32,000 nt of DNA from Gemmata obscuriglobus (GTDB lineage Bacteria; Planctomycetota; Planctomycetia; Gemmatales; Gemmataceae), in contig NZ_CP042911.1 of the NCBI RefSeq assembly GCF_008065095.1, positions 4,410,001 through 4,442,000 of the forward strand. Direction: 5' to 3'. The notes below the pieces were generated by a model. The model did not search any database. It was not told where the DNA came from and saw only the letters and a list, made by a program, of their open reading frames with translations. Positions within the stretch are counted from its first letter, which is position 1; each line of letters starts with the position of its first letter. Made by a program: the position numbers and the translations under genes. Shown here one piece after another: positions 1-9,680 of the stretch.

Positions 1-3000
1 GGCATGGGCGGCATGGGCGGTGGGTTCCCGCCCGGCCCGTCGATGGGGGGCGACCCCGCAATGCTCCCGCCCGGCGACCCGTCCGCCGGCGGTGGCGCGG
101 CGGTGCCGTTCGCGGAACAGCGGGTGCACGTGTTCGGCTGGGACGACTGGAAGCAGACCAACACGCCCGCCGGCCCGCGCATGGTGAGCGCCAGCGGGAA
201 GCGGTCGCTCACACTCGAGTCGTTCCAGCGGTTGAGTTCCCGGACCCGCGCGGGCGGCGCGCTGCCGAAGGCCCGGGGCGCCGGCCCGGCCCCGGTGCGG
301 GCGCCCGCACCGCCCCAGGCGCCCGCCGCGCCGGAGCCCCCGGCCGCGCCGAAACCGCCCGCGTCGCCCGTGGCGCCGGCCGCTCCGACGCCCGCCTCCG
401 TTGCTCCCGCGCCGACGACCGCCCGGGGCGCGCTCGCCGCCCGGCGGGCCGCGGCCGCGGCGGGGCGGGGCGCGAAGGCGGCGGCGCGGACGGCCGGGGA
501 CGCGGCCGCGCTCGGGCTGGCCGGCGGGTCGTCCACGGTCCAGGGCGCGGGGTGGGCCGCCGAGAAGCTGGGGCAGGCGATCCGCCGGGTGCCGCTCCTC
601 GACTCCGTCGGCGCGCCCCTCGAGCGGTTCGGCAAGGCGCTCAAGGACGAGGCCCGCTCGATCGCCATCCAGGCCATGATCCGCGGGCAGAAGGGCGCGG
701 CCACCCGGAAGGCGGTCAAGCGGGTGCTCAAGGCCGCGGCCCCGGACTTCTACCGCAACTACAAGATCCACGGGCTGGGCAAGGCGCTGGTGATGGAGGC
801 CGGCACCCTGGCGCTGTCGTTCACCCTCGGCACCGCGGCCGTCGGCGGGGCGCTGGCCCTGGCCGGGCTCGCGGGCGCCCCCGGCGTCGCGGGGCTGGCC
901 GTCGGCACCGTCGCGGGCAAGGGCCTGACCGCGACCGCGCTCCTCGGGGCCGGGGCGAAAACGTACCTGTCCGGGGCCGTGTCCGGGATCATCCGCAAGG
1001 CGGTCCAGGCGCCGTTCTACGGCCGCTGGAACAACCTCCGCGGCACGCGCGGGGCGGGGACCGCGGTGCGCAAGGCGGACGCCGCGATGGAGGCCCGCCG
1101 CGCCCAGGACCTGGGCACCAACACCGGCGGGCTGCTCTCCCGCGCGAAGCGCGCCCTCTTGCTCAAGACCCGCGGGCCGAAGGCGGTGGCCCGCGCGGAG
1201 GCCCGGGCCAAGTTGAAGGCCGCCCGGGCGGGCATGGTGGCCGGGCCGAGCGCGGCCGTGGGCGCCGCCCGCAACGCGAACAACCGGGCCGGCGGGCGGG
1301 ACTTCTACCGCGGCCCGGGGCAGGCGTCGCAGCGGAAGTTCTTCGCCGAGGCCGCCGGCGACGACCCGCTCGGGTTCGTGGTCGCGTTCCGCGAGCAGGC
1401 CGAACGCGCGATCGGCCGCCCGGTGGACCTGACCGACGAGCAGCTCGCGGCGCTGCTGGCGGACCTGCTCGAGTACCTGGACGAGGCGACCGCCGCGGCG
1501 CTCGACGAGGACGCGCCCCCGCAGGCCGAGTCGTTCGCCGAGCGGGCGGCGGAGCAGGGGCTCGAATGGGCCGTGTTCGGGTGGCAGCCGGCGCGGACCC
1601 GGTCCGGGGGCGTGAAGGCCGTCGGTACCGCGGAGCATCAGGGGCAGGTTCTTTATGGGGACAGGGCCCGGGCCGCGCTCGAGCGCCAGGCCGGCGTCGG
1701 CCGCCGGGCCACGGCCCCGCGGACCCTGACGTTCGAGACCGTCGGCCCGCGCGGGGGCGTGAAGCGCACGGTCGAGCGCGGCGTGAGCCCGGAGCGGGCG
1801 CGCGAGGTGGTCGCCCAGCAGGCCCGCCGCGACGCCCAGGACGGCCCCGCGGACCCGCGTGCCCCGCGGCTCGTGAAGATCAACCGGACCCGGATCCGCA
1901 AGGCCGTCACCGCGCAGGCCGCCGAACTCGCCCCGGCCGCCGCCCGGGCGGGGAGCGATCCCGCCGCGGCCGCGAAGGTGGCCGACGCCGGGAAGCAGGC
2001 GGTGACGCACGCCGCGGCCGAGTTGAAGAAGCTCGGGCCGCTCCCGGAGGCCGTGCGGCCCGTCATCCGGTCCACGTGGCTCGACGCCGCCCGGGGCATG
2101 CCGAAGGGCCAGCGCAAAGAGGTCGGCAACCTGCTGGAGGACACGCTCGGCCGGGACGTGGACGCGGCCGGGGACCTCGCGCTCAAGCTCGGCGGGTACC
2201 TCGCCAAGCTGCCCGCGGGCGGCGCGAAGCTGGTGGTCGGGGCGCTGGGGCGGTTCGCCGGCGGGCTGGTGCGGGCGGCGGTCAAGGCCCCGCGGACCGC
2301 CAAGCGGCTGGCCGGCGAGGTGGTGGGCGACGTCGTTCGTGCCGGCGCCCACGACCGGCAGACCGCCTCGAACCTGATCTCCGGGGCCGCCGGGGCGGTG
2401 ACCGCGGCGGGCCGGGCCGCGCTGGCCGTGCCCCGCACCCTGGCCGGGCACGCGGCCGACGCCGCCGTGTCCACCGCCGTCGGCACGGGCCAGGGGCTGC
2501 TGGCGCTCGCCCGCGAAACCCTGCGGCTCACCCCGAAGGCGGTCCGGGCCGGCTGGGGCGCGGCCAAATGGCTGGCGAACTCGCGCCTCGGGCGGGCGGC
2601 CCGGCCGTTCCTGTGGTGGGGCGCGGCGCTGGTGGGCGGGGCCGCCGTGATGGCCGCGCCGGTGCTGGCCGCCGGGGCCGGGCTGATCCCGCCGCTGGCC
2701 GGGTTCCTCGCCGCCCCCGCGGCGGTCGCGGGCACCGTGTACCTGGGCCGCAAGATCGGGCGCAAGGCCGCCGACGCCGGGATGCGGGCCACCGGGAACG
2801 ACGAGGTGGTGCCCCACTCCGAGCGGGTGCACGCGTTCGCGTGGCACGAGTGGACCCGGCAGGGCGACCGGATGGTGTCGCCGGGCGGCAAGCGGTCGCT
2901 CACCCTGGACGCGTTCCAGAAGCTCAGCGCGCGCCGCGGCGGCACCCCGGCTCCGGGGGCCGCGGGGGTGCGGGCGCCCGCACCGGGCCGGTCGCCGTTC

Positions 3001-4089
3001 GCGCCGCCGGCGAGCCCGCAGCCCGGGCGGGTGTACCAGGTCGCGCCCGGGCGGGTGGCGGTGGACCCGGGCCGGTTCCAGTTCAAGCTCAACACCAACG
3101 CCCGGGGCGTCGGCACCGAGCTCGCGCACGTGACCACGTTCGACCCGGAGCTGGCGGGCGTGCTGGCGGTCTGGAAGGACCCGGCCGACGGGCGGACGTA
3201 CGTGGTGAACGGGCACCACCGGCTCGACCTCGCGAACCGCACCGGCGCCCGCGACGTGAGCGTCCGGTACGTGACCGCGAAAACGGCGGAAGAGGCCCGG
3301 GCCAAGGGGGCGCTGATCAACATCGCCGAGGGCCGGGGCACCGCGGTGGACGCGGCCAAGTTCCTGCGCGACACGGGCCGCTCGGCCGCCGACCTCGCGG
3401 CCGCCGGGATCTCGCTCAAGGGGCAGGTGGCGCGGGACGCCGCCGACCTGGTGAAGCTCGCCCCGGACCTGTTCCGCCAGGTGGCCCACGGGTCCCTCGA
3501 CCCGGACCGCGCGGCCGCGGTGGCCCGGCACCTGGACGACCACCTGGACCAGCAGCGGCTCCTGTCGGCGCTGGCCAAGCAGGAGGAGCGGACCGGGCGG
3601 CCCGCGGGCCCGCGGGTGGTCGAGGCGATGGCCCAGGAGATGCGCGACGCCCCCAAGGTGAGCCGCACGCAGGAGTCGCTGTTCGGCCCGATCGAGCAGG
3701 ACGAGAGCGTCTACTTCCACCGCGCCGAGCTGAAGGCGTACGTGCGGGCCGAGCTGGCGAAGGAGGCCAAGGACTTCCGGCTCGGGGCGAGCGTGCGCCG
3801 CGCCCAGGCCCTCGAGTCCGTGGCCGGCAACCGGCTCGCCACCGAGCAGAACCGCACGATCGCCGACCGCGCGGACGCGGCCCTCGACGACTTCGACCGC
3901 GGCGCCCGGCTCAAGGGGCCGCTCTCCGACCTCCTGAACGAGTACGCGGTGCACTATGCCGACGCCACCAACGCCGGGCGCTCCCAGCTCCGGGCCAAAA
4001 CCCTCGCCGCAGTGCGAAACGTGCTATCCGGCAGCGACCCCGGAGCAGCTCCGGTCGTGGCGAAGCGAGGTCCGGGACTTTTTGACTGA
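1..4089 (+). CDS. Large (>1361 aa, 5' partial) low-complexity virion-associated protein with Ala/Gly-rich TM-like segments and a C-terminal ParB/Srx-like nuclease domain. Candidate internal/ejected 'polyvalent' protein.
   Basis: The frame is open from nt 1 and has G/C-rich third codon positions. There are two copies of a W-rich motif (nt 112-240 and 2821-2934). Long hydrophobic Ala/Gly stretches include ALVMEAGTLALSFTLGTAAVGGALALAGLAG and FLWWGAALVGGAAVMAAPVLAAGAG. The ParB-like block lies at 3031-3330. The gene sits directly upstream of the MuF-like gene. Confidence 0.75.
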   Translation, partial: GMGGMGGGFPPGPSMGGDPAMLPPGDPSAGGGAAVPFAEQRVHVFGWDDWKQTNTPAGPRMVSASGKRSLTLESFQRLSSRTRAGGALPKARGAGPAPVRAPAPPQAPAAPEPPAAPKPPASPVAPAAPTPASVAPAPTTARGALAARRAAAAAGRGAKAAARTAGDAAALGLAGGSSTVQGAGWAAEKLGQAIRRVPLLDSVGAPLERFGKALKDEARSIAIQAMIRGQKGAATRKAVKRVLKAAAPDFYRNYKIHGLGKALVMEAGTLALSFTLGTAAVGGALALAGLAGAPGVAGLAVGTVAGKGLTATALLGAGAKTYLSGAVSGIIRKAVQAPFYGRWNNLRGTRGAGTAVRKADAAMEARRAQDLGTNTGGLLSRAKRALLLKTRGPKAVARAEARAKLKAARAGMVAGPSAAVGAARNANNRAGGRDFYRGPGQASQRKFFAEAAGDDPLGFVVAFREQAERAIGRPVDLTDEQLAALLADLLEYLDEATAAALDEDAPPQAESFAERAAEQGLEWAVFGWQPARTRSGGVKAVGTAEHQGQVLYGDRARAALERQAGVGRRATAPRTLTFETVGPRGGVKRTVERGVSPERAREVVAQQARRDAQDGPADPRAPRLVKINRTRIRKAVTAQAAELAPAAARAGSDPAAAAKVADAGKQAVTHAAAELKKLGPLPEAVRPVIRSTWLDAARGMPKGQRKEVGNLLEDTLGRDVDAAGDLALKLGGYLAKLPAGGAKLVVGALGRFAGGLVRAAVKAPRTAKRLAGEVVGDVVRAGAHDRQTASNLISGAAGAVTAAGRAALAVPRTLAGHAADAAVSTAVGTGQGLLALARETLRLTPKAVRAGWGAAKWLANSRLGRAARPFLWWGAALVGGAAVMAAPVLAAGAGLIPPLAGFLAAPAAVAGTVYLGRKIGRKAADAGMRATGNDEVVPHSERVHAFAWHEWTRQGDRMVSPGGKRSLTLDAFQKLSARRGGTPAPGAAGVRAPAPGRSPFAPPASPQPGRVYQVAPGRVAVDPGRFQFKLNTNARGVGTELAHVTTFDPELAGVLAVWKDPADGRTYVVNGHHRLDLANRTGARDVSVRYVTAKTAEEARAKGALINIAEGRGTAVDAAKFLRDTGRSAADLAAAGISLKGQVARDAADLVKLAPDLFRQVAHGSLDPDRAAAVARHLDDHLDQQRLLSALAKQEERTGRPAGPRVVEAMAQEMRDAPKVSRTQESLFGPIEQDESVYFHRAELKAYVRAELAKEAKDFRLGASVRRAQALESVAGNRLATEQNRTIADRADAALDDFDRGARLKGPLSDLLNEYAVHYADATNAGRSQLRAKTLAAVRNVLSGSDPGAAPVVAKRGPGLFD
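3031..3330 (+). other. ParB/sulfiredoxin-like nuclease domain inside the large protein
   Basis: Sequence VYQVAPGRVAVDPGRFQFK...LAGVLAVWKDPADGRTYVVNGHHRLDLA...VSVRYV. The V(V/I)-x-GHHR signature (GHHR codons 3211-3222) and the preceding 'I-x-V-D-P' style strand resemble ParB N-terminal/Srx domains, from memory of the family. Confidence 0.6.
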
Positions 4090-5005
4090 CGGCGCCGGAC
4101 TTTCGGCTTCTCGAAATTCCGAAACGTCGGCGTTCGCGCGGTTCGCGGAGGGGGACGCGTTCGCCCCCGCGGGGCCGGACGGCGCCCGGGCCGCGCAGCT
4201 CCTGGCCCGCGCCCGGGCCGACGGGGCCGAGGTGTTCGCCACGGCCAGCGAGTCGGCGGTGCGGCGGCTGCTCGCCTCGGGGGACCCGCTCGGGGCGCCG
4301 GTGCTGTTCGACGACCAGGAGCTCGGGCAGATCGCCGAGGCCCTGGCGCGGTGCGTGGCCAGCGCCGACCTGATGGGCCGCGCGCGGATCCGCCGGCGGG
4401 CCGAGATGGCCGAGCGGGTGGCGTTCGCGGACGCCGGCACCGACGACCCGTTCCACGACTTCGCCGACGCGGTCCCGGTGCTCGAACCGACGACGGCGCT
4501 CGAGTACTTCCGCCGCCTCGTGCCGACGCTGGGCGGGGGGACGGCGCGGTACGGCGCCAAGCTCGACCGGCACGCGTTCACGCTCGCGGTGGCGTCGGAT
4601 CAGACGGTACTCGAGAAGGTCAAGGCGGCGATCCTGAAGCAACTGCAAACGGGGGCGGGCGCGGTGCCGGACGTCGAGCAGGTCCTCGACGACGCCGGCG
4701 TGTCGGTGGCGAACCCGCAGTACGCGGACATGGTCGTGCGGACCAACGTGCTCGACGCGTACAACCAGGGCGCCCAGGACGAGATCGCGGACCCGGACAT
4801 GCAGGAGCGGTTCCCGGCCTGGGAGTACCTGGGGATCCTCGACGACCGGACCGGCGACGACCACCGTCCCAAGATCGGCAAGTACTTCCCGACGAGCGTC
4901 CCGTTCGCCGCGGTGCGCGGCTCGCGGGTGTGGAACTGCCGGTGCAGCTTCGCCCCGGTGTCGAAGCACCTGATGAGCGGGATCCGTGTGGAAAGGAGCT
5001 GGTAG
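4082..5005 (+). CDS. Phage head morphogenesis protein, MuF / SPP1 gp7 family
   Basis: The C-terminal signature FPAWEYLGILDDRTGDDHRPKIGKYFP...VWNCRCSFAPV matches the MuF/gp7 motif (D-x-R-T...H...G...F...CRC...P). The start is uncertain. The first ATG (3956) overlaps the upstream gene by 134 nt and encodes P/S/T-rich off-frame-looking residues. TTG 4082 overlaps the upstream stop (TTGACTGA) and is my preferred start. Confidence 0.9.
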   Translation: MTDGAGLSASRNSETSAFARFAEGDAFAPAGPDGARAAQLLARARADGAEVFATASESAVRRLLASGDPLGAPVLFDDQELGQIAEALARCVASADLMGRARIRRRAEMAERVAFADAGTDDPFHDFADAVPVLEPTTALEYFRRLVPTLGGGTARYGAKLDRHAFTLAVASDQTVLEKVKAAILKQLQTGAGAVPDVEQVLDDAGVSVANPQYADMVVRTNVLDAYNQGAQDEIADPDMQERFPAWEYLGILDDRTGDDHRPKIGKYFPTSVPFAAVRGSRVWNCRCSFAPVSKHLMSGIRVERSW

Positions 5006-5007
5006 CC

Positions 5008-5196
5008 GTGGTCGATCCGCACTGGACGCCAACGCCGGACAACGTGAACGCCCTCCCGGAACCCGTGCGGCGGTACATCCACGATTTGGAGACGCGGTGC
5101 GATCCCGCGGGCGACGTGCGGGCGCTGAGCCTGCTGACGGACGAGAACGCCATGCTCCGGGCCAAGATCCAAGAGATGAGGGAGCAACGCCCATGA
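5008..5196 (+). CDS. Small hypothetical protein (62 aa), coiled-coil C-terminus
   Basis: GTG 5008 lies 3 nt after the MuF stop, with GAAAGGAG about 10 nt upstream. The stop overlaps the next ATG (ATGA at 5193-5196). G/C-rich third codon positions. No recognisable family. Confidence 0.55.
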   Translation: MVDPHWTPTPDNVNALPEPVRRYIHDLETRCDPAGDVRALSLLTDENAMLRAKIQEMREQRP

Positions 5197-6239
5197 ACCG
5201 CACCGTACAGCACCCGCTGCTCCGCGCCTCGAACCTGCTCGTGCACTGCTTTGCCGCTGTCAAGTGGCAGCAGATCGACGGGGGCAAGTGGAAATCGGCC
5301 GGAGGCAGGGTCTTATCCAACGAGGCCTACCAGCGCCACCAGCAGCGGGTCGGTAGCCGCGAGGCGAAGGGCGGGGCAAAAAAGGCCCCGGCGCCAAAGG
5401 GTGCGGCGCCGAAGCCGTCCGCCTCAGAGGCCGCGCCCGCCGGCTGGCCCACGGGAACGGCCGCCTGGGCGGCGCCGGAGGGCGGCAGCGCGCCCGCCGG
5501 CCCCCGGGCCATCGCCGCCCCCGCGAAGAGGAAGAAGAAAACGCGGTCCGGGGACCCGTCCGCCGCGGCGAACCGGGCCGCGTACGACCGGGTCCGGGCG
5601 GGCGGCCAGAGGCTCGGGCCGTACGCCGCGGACGTCGACTACACCCGGCCGATCACGCCGCCGGTGAAGGCCCCGCCGCTGCCCGGCGGTCAGAAGCTCC
5701 CGGACCCGACGCCCGCGGAGAGCGCGTACATCACCGCCCAGCACGGCCGGGACAAGCAGCGGTTCGGCGCGAAGGTGGCCGACTTCCTGAAGAAGGCCAC
5801 GGCCGGGGCGGTGGGCATCCTCGCCGGGCTCAACGGGATGGCGTGGGGCGCGATCGCCGGCAGTGCCCTGGGCGGCCCGCTCGGGCTCGCGCTCGGCACC
5901 GCCGTCGGGGGCGGGCTCGGCGGGAAGCTCGGGGCTTGGGGCGGGAAGAAGATCCTCAAGGCGGCCAAGCGGCCCGCCAAAGGGGGGAAGCGGGCCGGGT
6001 TCGCCGAGGCCCAGCCCGCGGACCTCGACCCGGTCCCGCTCATCAAGGCCCGGATCCGCGCCCTGCTCGCGCGTCAGGGCAAGCCGTCGGACATCCCGAT
6101 CGACGACGAGCCGATCCTGGCGGCCCTCGCACTGGCCGCCCAGGACGACGACGCGCAGGAGCGAGCCGCGGCGCTCGCCCGGATGGCCGAACCGGTCCGG
6201 GGACTGGTGGGCGCTTCGCGGAGGGTACGCCGTGCCTGA
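5193..6239 (+). CDS. Hypothetical low-complexity protein with a glycine-zipper TM-like segment
   Basis: ATG 5193 follows GAGGGAG. The N-terminus carries a degenerate W-motif (FAAVKWQQIDGGKWKSAGGRVLS). Lys/Pro/Ala-rich linkers are present. The glycine-zipper segment is GAVGILAGLNGMAWGAIAGSALGGPLGLALGTAVGGGLGG. No family recognised. Confidence 0.65.
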   Translation: MNRTVQHPLLRASNLLVHCFAAVKWQQIDGGKWKSAGGRVLSNEAYQRHQQRVGSREAKGGAKKAPAPKGAAPKPSASEAAPAGWPTGTAAWAAPEGGSAPAGPRAIAAPAKRKKKTRSGDPSAAANRAAYDRVRAGGQRLGPYAADVDYTRPITPPVKAPPLPGGQKLPDPTPAESAYITAQHGRDKQRFGAKVADFLKKATAGAVGILAGLNGMAWGAIAGSALGGPLGLALGTAVGGGLGGKLGAWGGKKILKAAKRPAKGGKRAGFAEAQPADLDPVPLIKARIRALLARQGKPSDIPIDDEPILAALALAAQDDDAQERAAALARMAEPVRGLVGASRRVRRA

Positions 6240-7296
6240 CCTGACCGACCTGCTCGCGCTCCGGGCGTGCGCCGCGAACGTGTGGGACGCGTTCGCCGGC
6301 TTCGACGACTGGACCCAGAAGAACACCGCCGCCGGTCTCCGCATGGTGTCGCCCAGCGGGAAGCGGTCGCTCACAGTGGAGGTGTTCAACCGGCTCAAGG
6401 GCCGCAAACCAGGTGAGAAGCGGTCCGCGCCGAAGGGGCCGAAGGCGCCCGCGGCCGGGAAGGGCGGGCCCAAACCCGGCGAGCAGGAGCGCATCCTGAC
6501 GATGAAGGCCAAGGTCGCGCGCGACTCCTACGACGCCGCGGTCCGGGCGAAGCTCCCGGCCGCCGAGCTGGAGCCGCTCCGCAAGCGGGCCGAGGCCGCC
6601 GAGGCGGAACTCAAGGCCGGGCCGAAGCCGTCGCCCACGCTCCCGGACACGAGCCTGCCCGCGGTCCCGAAGGAGGTGCCGGCGCCCGCACCCGCGGCCA
6701 AACCGAAACCCGCCCCGCCGGCGAAACCGAAGCCGCCTGCGGCGGCCCCGGAGTTCGACCCGAAGAAGAAGGTCGCGGACCCGCACGCGGTGGTGCGTCA
6801 GCCCCCGCGCGTCGGGCCGGCGCCCAAGGGGCCGGCCACGAACCGCGCCGGCGCCGCGGCGGGCCGGGTGAAAGCGGCCGCGACCGCGACGGGCGCGCCC
6901 GCGGTCCCGCCCCGGGCCGACGGCAGCCCGGACCTACCCGCGCTGAAGAAGAGCGTGGACGACGGCATCACCACCGGCCGCGCGCTGGGGTGGAACTACG
7001 AAACGACCGCGGCCCGGGCCGCTCTGAAAGCCGCGGAAAAGCAGATCGACGATTACGCCCGGAAGTTCCCGCGGAGGCTGGCCCCGCTCGCGCGCGAGGT
7101 GACGGGCGAGGCCCCGGACTCGACCCAGGACGCGGTGAAGAAGCTCAAGGCCTGGGTGGGCGAGACGCTCGACCTGCTCGACCCGGGCGCACGAGCGAAG
7201 GGGCGCACGGCCCACATGAGCGAGCGGGCCGTGCTCGCGGAACTGCGCGGGCGCTTGGTAGGCGTGCGGGCGCTGTGCCGGGCGCTGGCGGGCTGA
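6232..7296 (+). CDS. Hypothetical protein with an N-terminal W-motif, a coiled coil and a Pro/Lys/Ala-rich linker
   Basis: GTG 6232 follows GGAGGG and overlaps the previous stop by 8 nt. Third clear copy of the W-motif (nt 6277-6405: NVWDAFAGFDDWTQKNTAAGLRMVSPSGKRSLTVEVFNRLKGR). PAPAPAAKPKPAPPAKPKPP linker. Confidence 0.65.
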   Translation: MPDLTDLLALRACAANVWDAFAGFDDWTQKNTAAGLRMVSPSGKRSLTVEVFNRLKGRKPGEKRSAPKGPKAPAAGKGGPKPGEQERILTMKAKVARDSYDAAVRAKLPAAELEPLRKRAEAAEAELKAGPKPSPTLPDTSLPAVPKEVPAPAPAAKPKPAPPAKPKPPAAAPEFDPKKKVADPHAVVRQPPRVGPAPKGPATNRAGAAAGRVKAAATATGAPAVPPRADGSPDLPALKKSVDDGITTGRALGWNYETTAARAALKAAEKQIDDYARKFPRRLAPLAREVTGEAPDSTQDAVKKLKAWVGETLDLLDPGARAKGRTAHMSERAVLAELRGRLVGVRALCRALAG

Positions 7297-7961: not shown

Positions 7962-7989
7962 TTTCATCCGGGCAACCCTCCCGCGCACA
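7962..7989 (+). promoter_or_regulatory. Conserved 21-nt box, copy 1 (TTTCATCCGGGCAACCCTCCC, plus conserved tail GCGCACA)
   Basis: One of four co-oriented copies. The CAT of the box is 33 nt upstream of ATG 7998. Function unknown; see findings. Confidence 0.6.
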
Positions 7990-7997
7990 GTGGGGGC

Positions 7998-9680
7998 ATG
8001 CCCGGCGCCGCCACCCAGCCCCGCACCGCGACCCAGCCCCGCTACTACATGCTCCGCGACGTGAACCTGTTCGCGTCGGGGGTGTACCGCGGCCGGCGCT
8101 GGTTCCCGCACTGGGTGCGGAACATGGCCGAGGCCGGGCGCAAGCTCGGCCCGGGCGGCGCGAAGCTGCACACCCCGCCAGCGGCCCCCGGGCACGAGGA
8201 CGACGAGGGGTGGCGCGAGTTCGTCCCGACCGACGAGCCCGCGGCCGGGTGGGTCGACCCCAACAGCCTCCGCGCCGTCCCGGACCCGCAGCACGCGGGC
8301 CACGTGATCCTCAAGGGGAACGTGGTCAACGTGCCCGAGGCGATGGCCCGGAAGATCGAGAGCGGCGAGTACCGGTTCGGCTCGGCCGAGATCTACGACT
8401 CGTTCCTCGACGACTTCGGCCGCAAGTACGGCAAGGTGCTGCGCAAGTTCAGCTACCTCGGCGGCGAGGTGCCCCAGGTGAAGCGCCTGGGGCCGCTCCC
8501 GCGGCCCGAGCCGATGCCCGCGCCGATGCGGTTCAGCGAGCGCCCCGGGGTGCGGATCCGGGAGCACACCGTCCGGGGCCGCCGCGGCGCCCTGATCACC
8601 TTCGCGGAGACGAGCAGAATGGACCGCCAGTCGATGATCGCCGCGATCCAGGCGGACATGCCCGGGATCAGCCAGTCCACCCTCGACGCGATGACCGACG
8701 AGGCACTCGCGGACCTGGTCAAGAACCTCCCCACCGGGGCCGGAACTCCGACGCCGCCGGCGAACCCCGCCCCCGCGCCGGCCACCGGGATGTTCGCCGA
8801 GCCGAGCCGCGAGGAGATGATCGCCGCCCTGGTGGACGAGGGCGAGGACGCGGCCGAGCTCGAGGGGATGAGCGACGAGGAGCTCGGCGCCCTGTACGAG
8901 GAAGTGATCGGCGAAAGCACCGAGACCGAGGGCGAGGGCGAGGAACCCGTTGAGACGATGGCGGACCCGGCGGCCGTGACCCGCGAGGAGATGATCGCGG
9001 ACCTGGTGGCGCAGGGGCAGGACGCGGCCGCGCTCGACGCCATGCCCGACGACCAGCTCCGCGCCCTGTACGCCCAGCTCACCGCCGACCCGCCCGCACC
9101 GCCCGCGGCCCCCGCGCCGGCCCCGGCCGCCGTCCCGATGAGCGAGCCGCGGCGCAAACCCAGGCCCAAACCCGCCACCCGCAGGGGCGTCACCGTGAAC
9201 AGCGAACTCGCGATCAAGGCGAAGCGGCTGAACGCCGCGTTGGACAACGAGTTGTCTCGGCTCCGCGTCAGCAACGAGCGGCGGAAGCGCGACGACGCGA
9301 CGAAGTTCTGCGACCAGCTCGTCTCCGAGGGCCGGGCCACCCCGGCCCAGGTGACGGCCGCGTACCTGCCGCTCTTGCTCGGGCTCGACGACACCCGGGC
9401 CGTCCACCGGTTCACCGAGAACGGCCGGACCCGCAACCTCACCGCCTACGAGGCCCGCAAGGCCCAGCTCGCGCAGATGCCGGTGACGGTCAAGTTCGGC
9501 GAGCGGTTCGCCGCCGGCCCGCCCGCCGGCGAGTTCAGCGGCGAGGCCGAGCTGGCCAAGGTGAAGCAGTTCGCCGCCGCGGCCGTGCCCGAGTCCCACC
9601 GCGAGCAGTACGTGACCAGCTTCGCCGAGCTGCAGAAGAAGAAGCCGCGGATCACGGCCAAGGAGTACGGGGCGCGCTGA
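7998..9680 (+). CDS. Mu gpI-like prohead protease/scaffold protein, with an acidic repeat-containing scaffold-like C-terminal half
   Basis: Position between MuF and the major head gene. The N-terminal block ...KIESGEYRFGSAEIYDSF...LRKFSYLGGEVPQVKRLG resembles the Mu-like prophage I protein as I remember it. The C-terminal half is acidic and helical, with three about 35-aa repeats (R-E-E-M-I-A-x-L-V...L-x-A-L-Y). A nested in-frame scaffold product, as in Mu I/Z, is possible. Confidence 0.7.
   Translation: MPGAATQPRTATQPRYYMLRDVNLFASGVYRGRRWFPHWVRNMAEAGRKLGPGGAKLHTPPAAPGHEDDEGWREFVPTDEPAAGWVDPNSLRAVPDPQHAGHVILKGNVVNVPEAMARKIESGEYRFGSAEIYDSFLDDFGRKYGKVLRKFSYLGGEVPQVKRLGPLPRPEPMPAPMRFSERPGVRIREHTVRGRRGALITFAETSRMDRQSMIAAIQADMPGISQSTLDAMTDEALADLVKNLPTGAGTPTPPANPAPAPATGMFAEPSREEMIAALVDEGEDAAELEGMSDEELGALYEEVIGESTETEGEGEEPVETMADPAAVTREEMIADLVAQGQDAAALDAMPDDQLRALYAQLTADPPAPPAAPAPAPAAVPMSEPRRKPRPKPATRRGVTVNSELAIKAKRLNAALDNELSRLRVSNERRKRDDATKFCDQLVSEGRATPAQVTAAYLPLLLGLDDTRAVHRFTENGRTRNLTAYEARKAQLAQMPVTVKFGERFAAGPPAGEFSGEAELAKVKQFAAAAVPESHREQYVTSFAELQKKKPRITAKEYGAR

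Follow-up and report, generated by a model that had tools for sequence, protein, structure and literature searches.

A conserved tryptophan-rich tag on head-module proteins of a Gemmata Mu-like prophage, a candidate capsid-loading address coupled to proteolytic release

Among the first phage products that a new host cell receives are the proteins carried in the head, several of which are counter-defence enzymes. They are hard to spot by sequence: the known signals, the capsid-targeting sequence (CTS) of phage T4 and the N-terminus of DarB of phage P1, have no usable consensus. The CTS of T4, a peptide about 10-20 residues long, is lost through a cut on its C-terminal side. It stands at the N-terminus of the diverse internal proteins IPI-III and Alt, several of them anti-defence, which are packed via the scaffolding core and injected (PMC3012670). 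In P1, the N-terminal 30 residues of DarB suffice to load a reporter into the capsid, and the authors of that work found no N-terminal consensus among the Dar proteins (PMC9024508); the P1 head also contains DdrB, which is of ParB type (PMC5512222). The phage polyvalent proteins and portal- or MuF-fused effectors described by Iyer, Burroughs, Anand, de Souza and Aravind in 2017 include ParB-like and DarB-like modules and are predicted to be packaged and possibly protease-processed (PMC5512222); that paper makes no mention of Gemmata, Planctomycetes or a tryptophan motif. Here we describe a tryptophan-rich module, hereafter the tag, that recurs in the head module of a Mu-like prophage of the planctomycete Gemmata obscuriglobus. 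The stretch analysed (the window) comprises 32,000 nucleotides, positions 4,410,001-4,442,000 of a single-contig genome of 9.0 Mb with a guanine-plus-cytosine content of 67%, and its first 12 kb are the head module. Coordinates below are those of the window unless a genome position is named.

The window holds four copies of the tag, three strong and one weaker. This is what the original prediction, made from the letters and the open reading frames (ORFs) alone, had described as three clear copies and a degenerate fourth, and it was borne out: the translations are as quoted, with ends within one to three residues, and the profile scores are 89-107 bits for the clear copies and 31 bits for the fourth.

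121-243, plus strand, frame +1: tag copy 1 (RVHVFGWDDWKQTNTPAGPRMVSASGKRSLTLESFQRLSSR; also given as 112-243, with a hidden Markov model envelope of 106-252), 107 bits, E=5e-30 genome-wide; internal, right after the portal domain and a linker
2824-2934, plus strand, frame +1: tag copy 2 (RVHAFAWHEWTRQGDRMVSPGGKRSLTLDAFQKLSAR; also given as 2815-2934), 89 bits; internal, heading the ParB-fold module
6271-6405, plus strand, frame +1: tag copy 3, 101 bits; 13 residues from the start codon, after the conserved leader M-P-D-L-x-x-L-L-A-L
5229-5348, plus strand, frame +3: tag copy 4, 31 bits, E=1.5e-10; the divergent 'GGKWKSxGGRVLS' form, 12 residues from the start codon

Whole-genome E-values for copies 1-3 run from 1e-24 to 5e-30, with a profile built from the same three copies. 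With that three-copy profile, the best further place in the 9-Mb genome outside a sister prophage reaches only 14 bits (E=0.3). The sister prophage lies on the minus strand at about 7,550,000-7,600,000 of the same genome, is 95-96% identical over most of its length, and carries four tags as the window does (genome positions 7590607-7590738, 7587910-7588029, 7584364-7584468 and 7583319-7583441). Its copy 3 has a short 'QQKGDRMVS' loop, the loop of the window's copy 3 being 4 residues longer. Copy 4 was scored by a second profile of 29 instances from which it was itself excluded, and the E-value given is the domain E. Its 'GGKWKSxGGRVLS' sub-type recurs in P0019, P0020, P0022 and L008. Because the copy-4-free profile matches it and orthologues in two metagenomic loci retain its divergent form, copy 4 is, on this comparison, a genuine family member. 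The DNA of the three clear copies is only 75% identical, with one 14-nt run identical across all three, and the codon of the invariant serine is AGC in copy 1 and TCG in copies 2 and 3. Given this low DNA identity and the different codon families for one invariant residue, the repeat is, as far as its codons tell, maintained at the protein level and not at the DNA level.

A profile search of 1.84 billion representative proteins returned 26 matches, seven of which were set aside on inspection as repetitive or low-complexity; the roughly 19 tag-bearing clusters judged genuine are all planctomycete-phage-like head-module proteins. Among them the tag occupies three kinds of position. It directly follows a Mu-type portal domain, in chains that often have two tags (P0001, P0008, P0009, P0019 and P0022); in proteins 350-1,100 residues long it lies 10-65 residues in from the N-terminus; and it stands both at the N-terminus and after the helicase in proteins of 1,900-2,350 residues that combine AAA_34, Helicase_C_4 and a visible adenine-methylase motif. 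The last make-up is that of phage P1 DarB, and the DarB-like tag carriers are P0002, P0023 and L008. The tag consensus is xFxxF[AG]W[DE]DW[KT]xxGDxMVSP[SG]G(K)RxL[ST]xxx[FWY]xRL, in which W10, S19 and L26 are invariant. The tag is basic, with a conserved SPxG(K)R loop, is always trailed by a Pro/Ala/Lys-rich linker, and is conserved across clusters that are less than 50% identical.

The surrounding synteny is kept too, in the order portal fusion, MuF, tagged protein, tagged protein, protease/scaffold and major capsid protein. The same gene order, with two to five tags each, is found in a locus of a Fimbriiglobus metagenome-assembled genome (the single locus yielded by a pattern scan of the genome collection), in three JGI metagenome contigs and in a Logan contig, so that the motif is conserved in homologous elements. 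Relatives vary in fusion state, MuF being fused in P0008, P0009, P0019 and P0022 and a separate gene in the window. Whole-genome profile scans did not find the tag in 400 sampled genomes of the phylum and gave at most one marginal match in 100 genomes of the family; two marginal genome matches (E about 5e-5 to 9e-5) are both partial, one of them with stop codons, and none outside this genome is convincing. A pattern scan of IMG/VR viral contigs and JGI metagenome contigs with the three-copy alignment confirmed nothing. Five segments scanned at E<=10 against Pfam-A, PHROGs v4 and NCBIfam gave no family match for the tag, and whole-protein scans were blank on it; DUF6508 alone came up (E=0.08; 13 bits, where its cut-off is 23.6), nothing was returned from PHROGs, and no Pfam family, the polyvalent-protein LPD families included, matches it. 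A published description of the tag was not found, and the literature on Gemmata Mu-like prophages held nothing relevant. By these searches the tag family is narrow, rare and restricted to head modules.

AlphaFold2, run on a 54-residue tag segment with 19 homologous instances, gave a model whose core has a predicted local distance difference test score (pLDDT) of about 90; the chain turns briefly at the Trp pair and then forms three short strands and a helix of 12 residues. When tag 2 was modelled together with its cargo (424 residues), the tag kept this structure at a pLDDT of about 93, and a disordered linker, with nine residues below 50, parts it from the ParB-like domain. As modelled, the tag, a module of 35-40 residues, folds on its own as a mini-domain of about 35. 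Foldseek found no counterpart for the tag model (best E=2.0 in PDB and 0.38 in BFVD), with the low sensitivity that a small query entails. Across Pfam, PHROGs and both Foldseek searches, the tag matches no known DNA-binding or enzymatic domain.

The original prediction had taken the tag for an N-terminal module on separate proteins, each copy heading a different cargo. The descriptions of the cargo hold, but copies 1 and 2 lie inside one and the same portal-fusion ORF, and only copies 3 and 4 are near N-termini. The genes and modules concerned are as follows.

1-4089, plus strand: 3' 1,362 codons of the giant portal-fusion ORF, which totals about 1,830-1,845 codons and is an open frame in both sister prophages
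1564-1689, plus strand: type-3 variant module (EWAVFGWQPARTRSGGVKAVGTAEHQGQVLYGDRARAALERQ; also given as FGWQPARTRSGGVKAVGTAEHQGQVLYG), which has an FxW start in common with the tag and occurs in nine other family proteins
3031-4086, plus strand: ParB/Srx-fold cargo domain with an NGHHR motif and a helical C-terminal part, AlphaFold pLDDT about 95
5193-6239, plus strand: glycine-zipper protein gene, ATG at 5193 the likely start, with orthologues in L009 and L012
6232-7296, plus strand: coiled-coil and Pro-rich protein gene, GTG at 6232 the likely start, with GGAGGG 8 nt upstream, overlapping the preceding stop codon

The frame that carries copies 1 and 2 stays open for a further 1,455 nt upstream of the window, and the ORF starts about 1.4 kb outside it. 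The first 440 residues of its product form a Portal_Mu domain (E=2.6e-30), followed in order by a Gly/Met/Pro linker, FAE, tag 1, a Pro/Ala linker, an Ala/Gly-rich part, FAE, the type-3 variant, a second Ala/Gly-rich part, HSE, tag 2, a linker and the ParB-fold domain. Between the sister prophages the ORF is 97% identical in protein with a ratio of nonsynonymous to synonymous substitution rates (dN/dS) of 0.16; the differences are mostly synonymous, and the indels are in-frame and confined to linkers. In relatives, the homologous portal fusions are called as single genes. Portal_Mu and the ParB fold are thus joined in one ORF with MuF as the next gene, which is the multi-module make-up of polyvalent and portal- or MuF-fused effectors. 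Two other arrangements were considered. Internal translation starts ahead of copies 1 and 2 were rejected as a general explanation, since the window has in-frame ATGs there and the homologues have none. A +1 frameshift linking the copy-4 gene to the copy-3 gene was also rejected: the GTG with its upstream GGAGGG starts the copy-3 gene, and the orthologues (P0004, P0006, P0027-29 and P0031) start at the equivalent place.

Internal and N-terminal tags differ in what precedes them. We defined a candidate site, Phi-x-Glu, as [FLMIVWYH]-[AGSR]-Glu ending 5-20 residues upstream of an anchor, the first invariant Trp, and counted 40 tag copies from the window, the loci of relatives and database proteins, 16 of them within 100 residues of the N-terminus and 24 internal. 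The site is present upstream of 20 of the 24 internal tags and of one of the 16 N-terminal ones (Fisher p=1.6e-6, a value that overstates the support because several of the 40 instances are orthologues). With random anchors in the same proteins, 2.4 of 24 had the site on average, and none of 5,000 trials exceeded 9. A Glu site downstream, 35-100 residues past the anchor, occurs in only 6 of the 40 copies. In the window, tag 1, the type-3 variant and tag 2 of the portal fusion each have such a site upstream, and the presumed enzyme is encoded nearby.

109-117, plus strand: Phe-Ala-Glu, candidate prohead-protease site upstream of tag 1, by the Phi-x-Glu pattern
1534-1542, plus strand: Phe-Ala-Glu upstream of the type-3 variant, by the same pattern
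2815-2823, plus strand: His-Ser-Glu, candidate protease site upstream of tag 2, by the same pattern
7980-9680 (start approximate), plus strand: prohead protease-scaffold gene, matching PHROG 976 and 3894 'head maturation protease', with five F[AGS]E sites

The tripeptide is also enriched beyond the tags. In five proteins presumed to lie inside the head (the portal fusion, MuF, the two tagged proteins and the protease-scaffold; 3,448 residues), F-[AGS]-E occurs 11 times against 1.5 expected by composition, about sevenfold, and none of 2,000 shuffles reached 11; in seven other late ORFs it occurs three times against 1.4 expected. In the scaffold, which has no Pfam family match, the F-[A/S/G]-E sites fall where a Pro/Ala linker meets a helix, and they are kept as Phi-small-Glu/Asp in the L009 and L012 orthologues, which are 55-58% identical. 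The product of the protease-scaffold gene is presumably what cuts at the Phi-x-Glu sites. Cleavage after Glu has precedent among prohead proteases. T4 gp21 cuts after (L/I)xE. The prohead protease gp245 of SPN3US cuts after AXE (PMC10052503), and the P1 capsid protein is cleaved between E120 and S121 (PMC9024508). Because of such precedents, the Phi-x-Glu tripeptide is probably a maturation site; a cut there would release a cassette that now begins with the tag.

The cargo of copy 2 had been labelled a ParB nuclease in the original prediction. The fold supports the first half of that label: against Caulobacter ParB, Noc and KorB, Foldseek gives a probability of 1.0 (E=2e-5). The ParB-like part has no sequence match in PDB, Pfam (ParBc included) or NCBIfam, and fold comparison alone succeeded, so that by its predicted fold the cargo belongs to the ParB/Srx superfamily and its nuclease role is putative. 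A separate observation concerns annotation. PHROG_21, labelled 'portal protein', matches the window at 2900-4020 (residues 966-1339 of the part of the fusion ORF inside the window) with E=1e-94, which is the ParB-fold region and not the portal; the label evidently stems from portal fusions and will mislead anyone who transfers annotation by it.

A search with tag 2 and the ParB-like domain together recovered 72 homologues of 265-735 residues, of which only two bear this tag. N-G-H-H-R is invariant in 56 homologues of the ParB-like domain, in keeping with the conserved GxxR/HHR pocket of the ParB N-terminal-domain fold. The other ParB-like homologues (P0045-P0101) start with different short N-terminal elements, followed by a linker and then by an equivalent ParB-like core. 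These alternative tags are of at least three kinds: [FL]xExxHPRxxGxF, a hairpin-like G-x-W-[VI]-T...G-x-H-[VI], and a Cys-containing SKTGxxxCS...LGKCRA. Two of the alternatively tagged genes (loci L025 and L027) lie directly downstream of a portal gene, one portal being Mu-type and fused to LPD1 and the other SPP1-type. The HPR, WxT and SKTG tags each occur once within their own 16-18 kb locus, and multi-copy use was not seen there. The protease/scaffold gene of the HPR-tag locus is unrelated to that of the window, whereas loci with the tag described here share the window's scaffold type. The ParB-like domain is found, further, inside a giant protein encoded beside the tail fibres of Ruegeria phage 45A6. 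Because one tag heads many cargo types here and the ParB-like cargo bears other tags elsewhere, the tag, to judge from these loci, follows the head module rather than the cargo. Such dissociation is the pattern that an address label would predict; a host-specific function after injection would also be compatible with it.

The tag may itself have been replaced within the lineage. P0032, an orthologue of the copy-3 protein in which the C-terminal domain is kept, has a type-2 module (CFAWKQGKRKGRYWLPEGKTDVPANRLYG) instead of the tag, with the pattern FAWKQGKRKGRYWLPEGKxDVPANRLYG. Type-2 and type-3 forms recur at ten places in the family. An hhalign comparison of the tag profile with these variants is weak (P=5e-4, 31.8% probability, over the first 22 columns), and it is mainly from the positional replacement in the orthologue that we regard the two forms as probable distant relatives of the tag. 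A further recurring element, noted in its own right, consists of Phi-A/S-Glu and a short amphipathic helix ending in Gly. In the window it is found at about 6000-6090 (GFAEAQPADLDPVPLIKARIRALLARQG), at about 7216-7293, and at about 1342-1430 in the portal-fusion ORF; it closes glycine-zipper or Ala/Gly-rich cargo units, also in P0008, P0015, P0016, P0018, P0020 and P0026.

We propose that the tag is a capsid-loading address coupled to proteolytic release of injected head cargo, a reading to which we give an even chance. Hypothetically, the head-assembly machinery of a Mu-like planctomycete phage lineage, whether scaffold, protease or portal interior, would recognise the tag, and unrelated proteins that bear it would thereby enter or stay in the procapsid and later exit with the DNA. 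The cargo would come in two forms: proteins from genes of their own, tagged close to the N-terminus, and cassettes of tag, linker and cargo strung behind the portal. In the strung form, the prohead protease would cut Phi-[A/G/S/R]-Glu just upstream of each tag, so that a cassette is freed with the tag at its new N-terminus. The cargo types, DarB-like and ParB-fold, resemble those packed in P1 heads, which by analogy fits packaging. The original prediction had offered a capsid-targeting or docking signal, or else a shared processing site; each half finds partial support, since the comparisons agree with either role and the two probably go hand in hand. That the proteins are packaged and cleaved, and what binds the tag, we infer throughout from comparison.

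Several observations weigh against this proposal, in addition to the shared ancestry of the tag instances counted above. Conservation is no weaker in internal copies than in N-terminal ones, although cargo fused to the portal should need no address; this fits retention, ordering, ejection or protease recognition at least as well as entry. The T4 targeting peptide is cut off on its C-terminal side, whereas the candidate site here is N-terminal and the cargo would keep its tag. In three orthologues of the copy-3 protein, FAE lies within the N-terminal leader, so that the tripeptide may belong to the leader of the domain, less constrained at true N-termini, rather than being a cleavage site. Finally, the restriction of the tag by lineage and host would also fit binding of a host factor.

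A bolder form of the proposal, which we put forward only tentatively and think rather unlikely, is that the tag is a capsid-loading domain in the full sense, transferable between proteins, and that its docking place is the acidic helical repeats of the lineage's scaffold (repeats at 8619-9080). The tag and the Phi-x-Glu sites would then make up a 'beads on a string' system, in which the portal carries, and the protease releases, programmable injected effectors. If true, the tag would be the first signal for capsid targeting that can be recognised as a sequence family; which proteins planctomycete phages inject could be read from sequence, and foreign proteins could be loaded into their particles.

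The close coupling of the site to internal tags invites a simpler account, in which the mini-domain is only an exosite gripped by the prohead protease to cut the adjacent Phi-x-Glu and has no role in cargo entry. The enrichment of the same site in the tagless scaffold and MuF, and the fact that portal-fused cargo requires release and not targeting, would both agree with this. It leaves the N-terminal copies to be accounted for: 15 of the 16 have no site, yet they are equally conserved and are kept in orthologues. The scaffold sites, moreover, have no adjoining tag, which suggests that the protease finds sites without one. We therefore think it improbable that processing is the whole of the tag's function.

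Cleavage upstream would leave the tag on the mature cargo, and this raises a second alternative, that the tag acts after ejection, for instance by attaching to the end of the phage DNA, to a component of the host envelope or to a host protein, and so holds the injected proteins together. Its basic character and conserved SPxG(K)R loop suit such a role, as do the DNA-directed activities of several cargo types (ParB-like and DarB-like) and the limitation of the tag to phages of one host group, with none in the 400 phylum genomes and about one in the 100 family genomes. On the other hand, the tag also heads glycine-zipper or membrane-like and coiled-coil proteins without obvious link to DNA, it is unlike any known nucleic-acid-binding fold by Foldseek of PDB and BFVD, and the ParB-like cargo of other lineages bears quite different tags that track the head module. 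A function exerted only after ejection seems to us to have a low probability.

Tags might, instead, associate with one another. Copies tethered to the portal, 12 per particle and two per chain, would then nucleate a bundle that free tagged proteins join, which would explain why the tag is retained on portal-fused cargo; every element with free tagged proteins also has a tagged portal fusion. This idea is pure inference, and AlphaFold folds the tag as a self-contained monomeric unit, so we rate it as quite unlikely. Least of all do we favour the repeat as a DNA-level homology patch for cassette shuffling with the peptide as passenger: cassette order and fusion state do vary among relatives and the clear copies share the identical 14-nt run, but with overall DNA identity at 75%, synonymous and codon-family changes at invariant residues, protein conservation across clusters below 50% identity and a confidently predicted fold, it is very improbable.

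The head module that carries the tags runs from the giant ORF, which ends at 4089, through a MuF-family gene, the two genes without family match that encode the tagged proteins, a minus-strand insert and the protease-scaffold gene to a major capsid gene of the Mu gpT type (E=2.4e-36). One row remains to be added.

3956-5005, plus strand: MuF-family head protein (Phage_Mu_F, E=3.6e-9), without the tag, with FAE in its N-terminal part

The MuF frame is open across 3956-4089 (134 nt) ahead of the portal-fusion stop, and the 5' coordinate of the gene is the limit of the frame. In P0008 (2,056 residues), the C-terminal MuF domain is seemingly interrupted by an insert of about 330 residues that ends in 'VVHNCSF' and is intein-like by sequence. 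Upstream of the window, genome positions 4,400,472-4,407,514 hold many repeat units of 400-550 bp with 77-86% identity, which end about 1 kb upstream of the portal ORF; no terminase gene was seen between this array and the portal gene.

With a tag that is conserved and foldable, one could list what a whole phage lineage injects, here a ParB-fold protein, DarB-like enzymes and several membrane-like proteins, and would do so for phages of Planctomycetes, hosts whose phage biology is almost unexplored. The grammar of tag plus site is, in addition, a direct prediction for virion proteomics.

Compared by description and not by sequence, the tag resembles the T4 CTS, a short shared N-terminal element, in being common to diverse and presumably head-internal proteins, within 100 residues of the N-terminus in 16 of the 40 copies; the T4 signal is coupled to a prohead protease that cuts after Glu, as the tag would be. 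It differs in being a predicted folded domain of about 35 residues, with its candidate site on the N-terminal side, that also occurs internally in portal fusions. With P1 the likeness lies in the DarB-like carriers P0002, P0023 and L008, which bear the tag at the place of the DarB signal; the difference is that one recognisable domain is common to all cargo here, whereas the Dar N-termini have no consensus. P1 loads its cargo via DarA/Hdf. Like the polyvalent proteins, the tagged proteins are multi-module and encoded beside, or fused to, the portal and MuF. The HPRxxGxF and W-I/V-T..G.H tags hold the same position on homologues of the ParB-like cargo, with different sequences. What is new here is the tripeptide associated with internal copies, and the finding that ParB-like homologues carry other tags in other lineages; it may be generally true that each lineage puts tags of its own on a common set of cargo.

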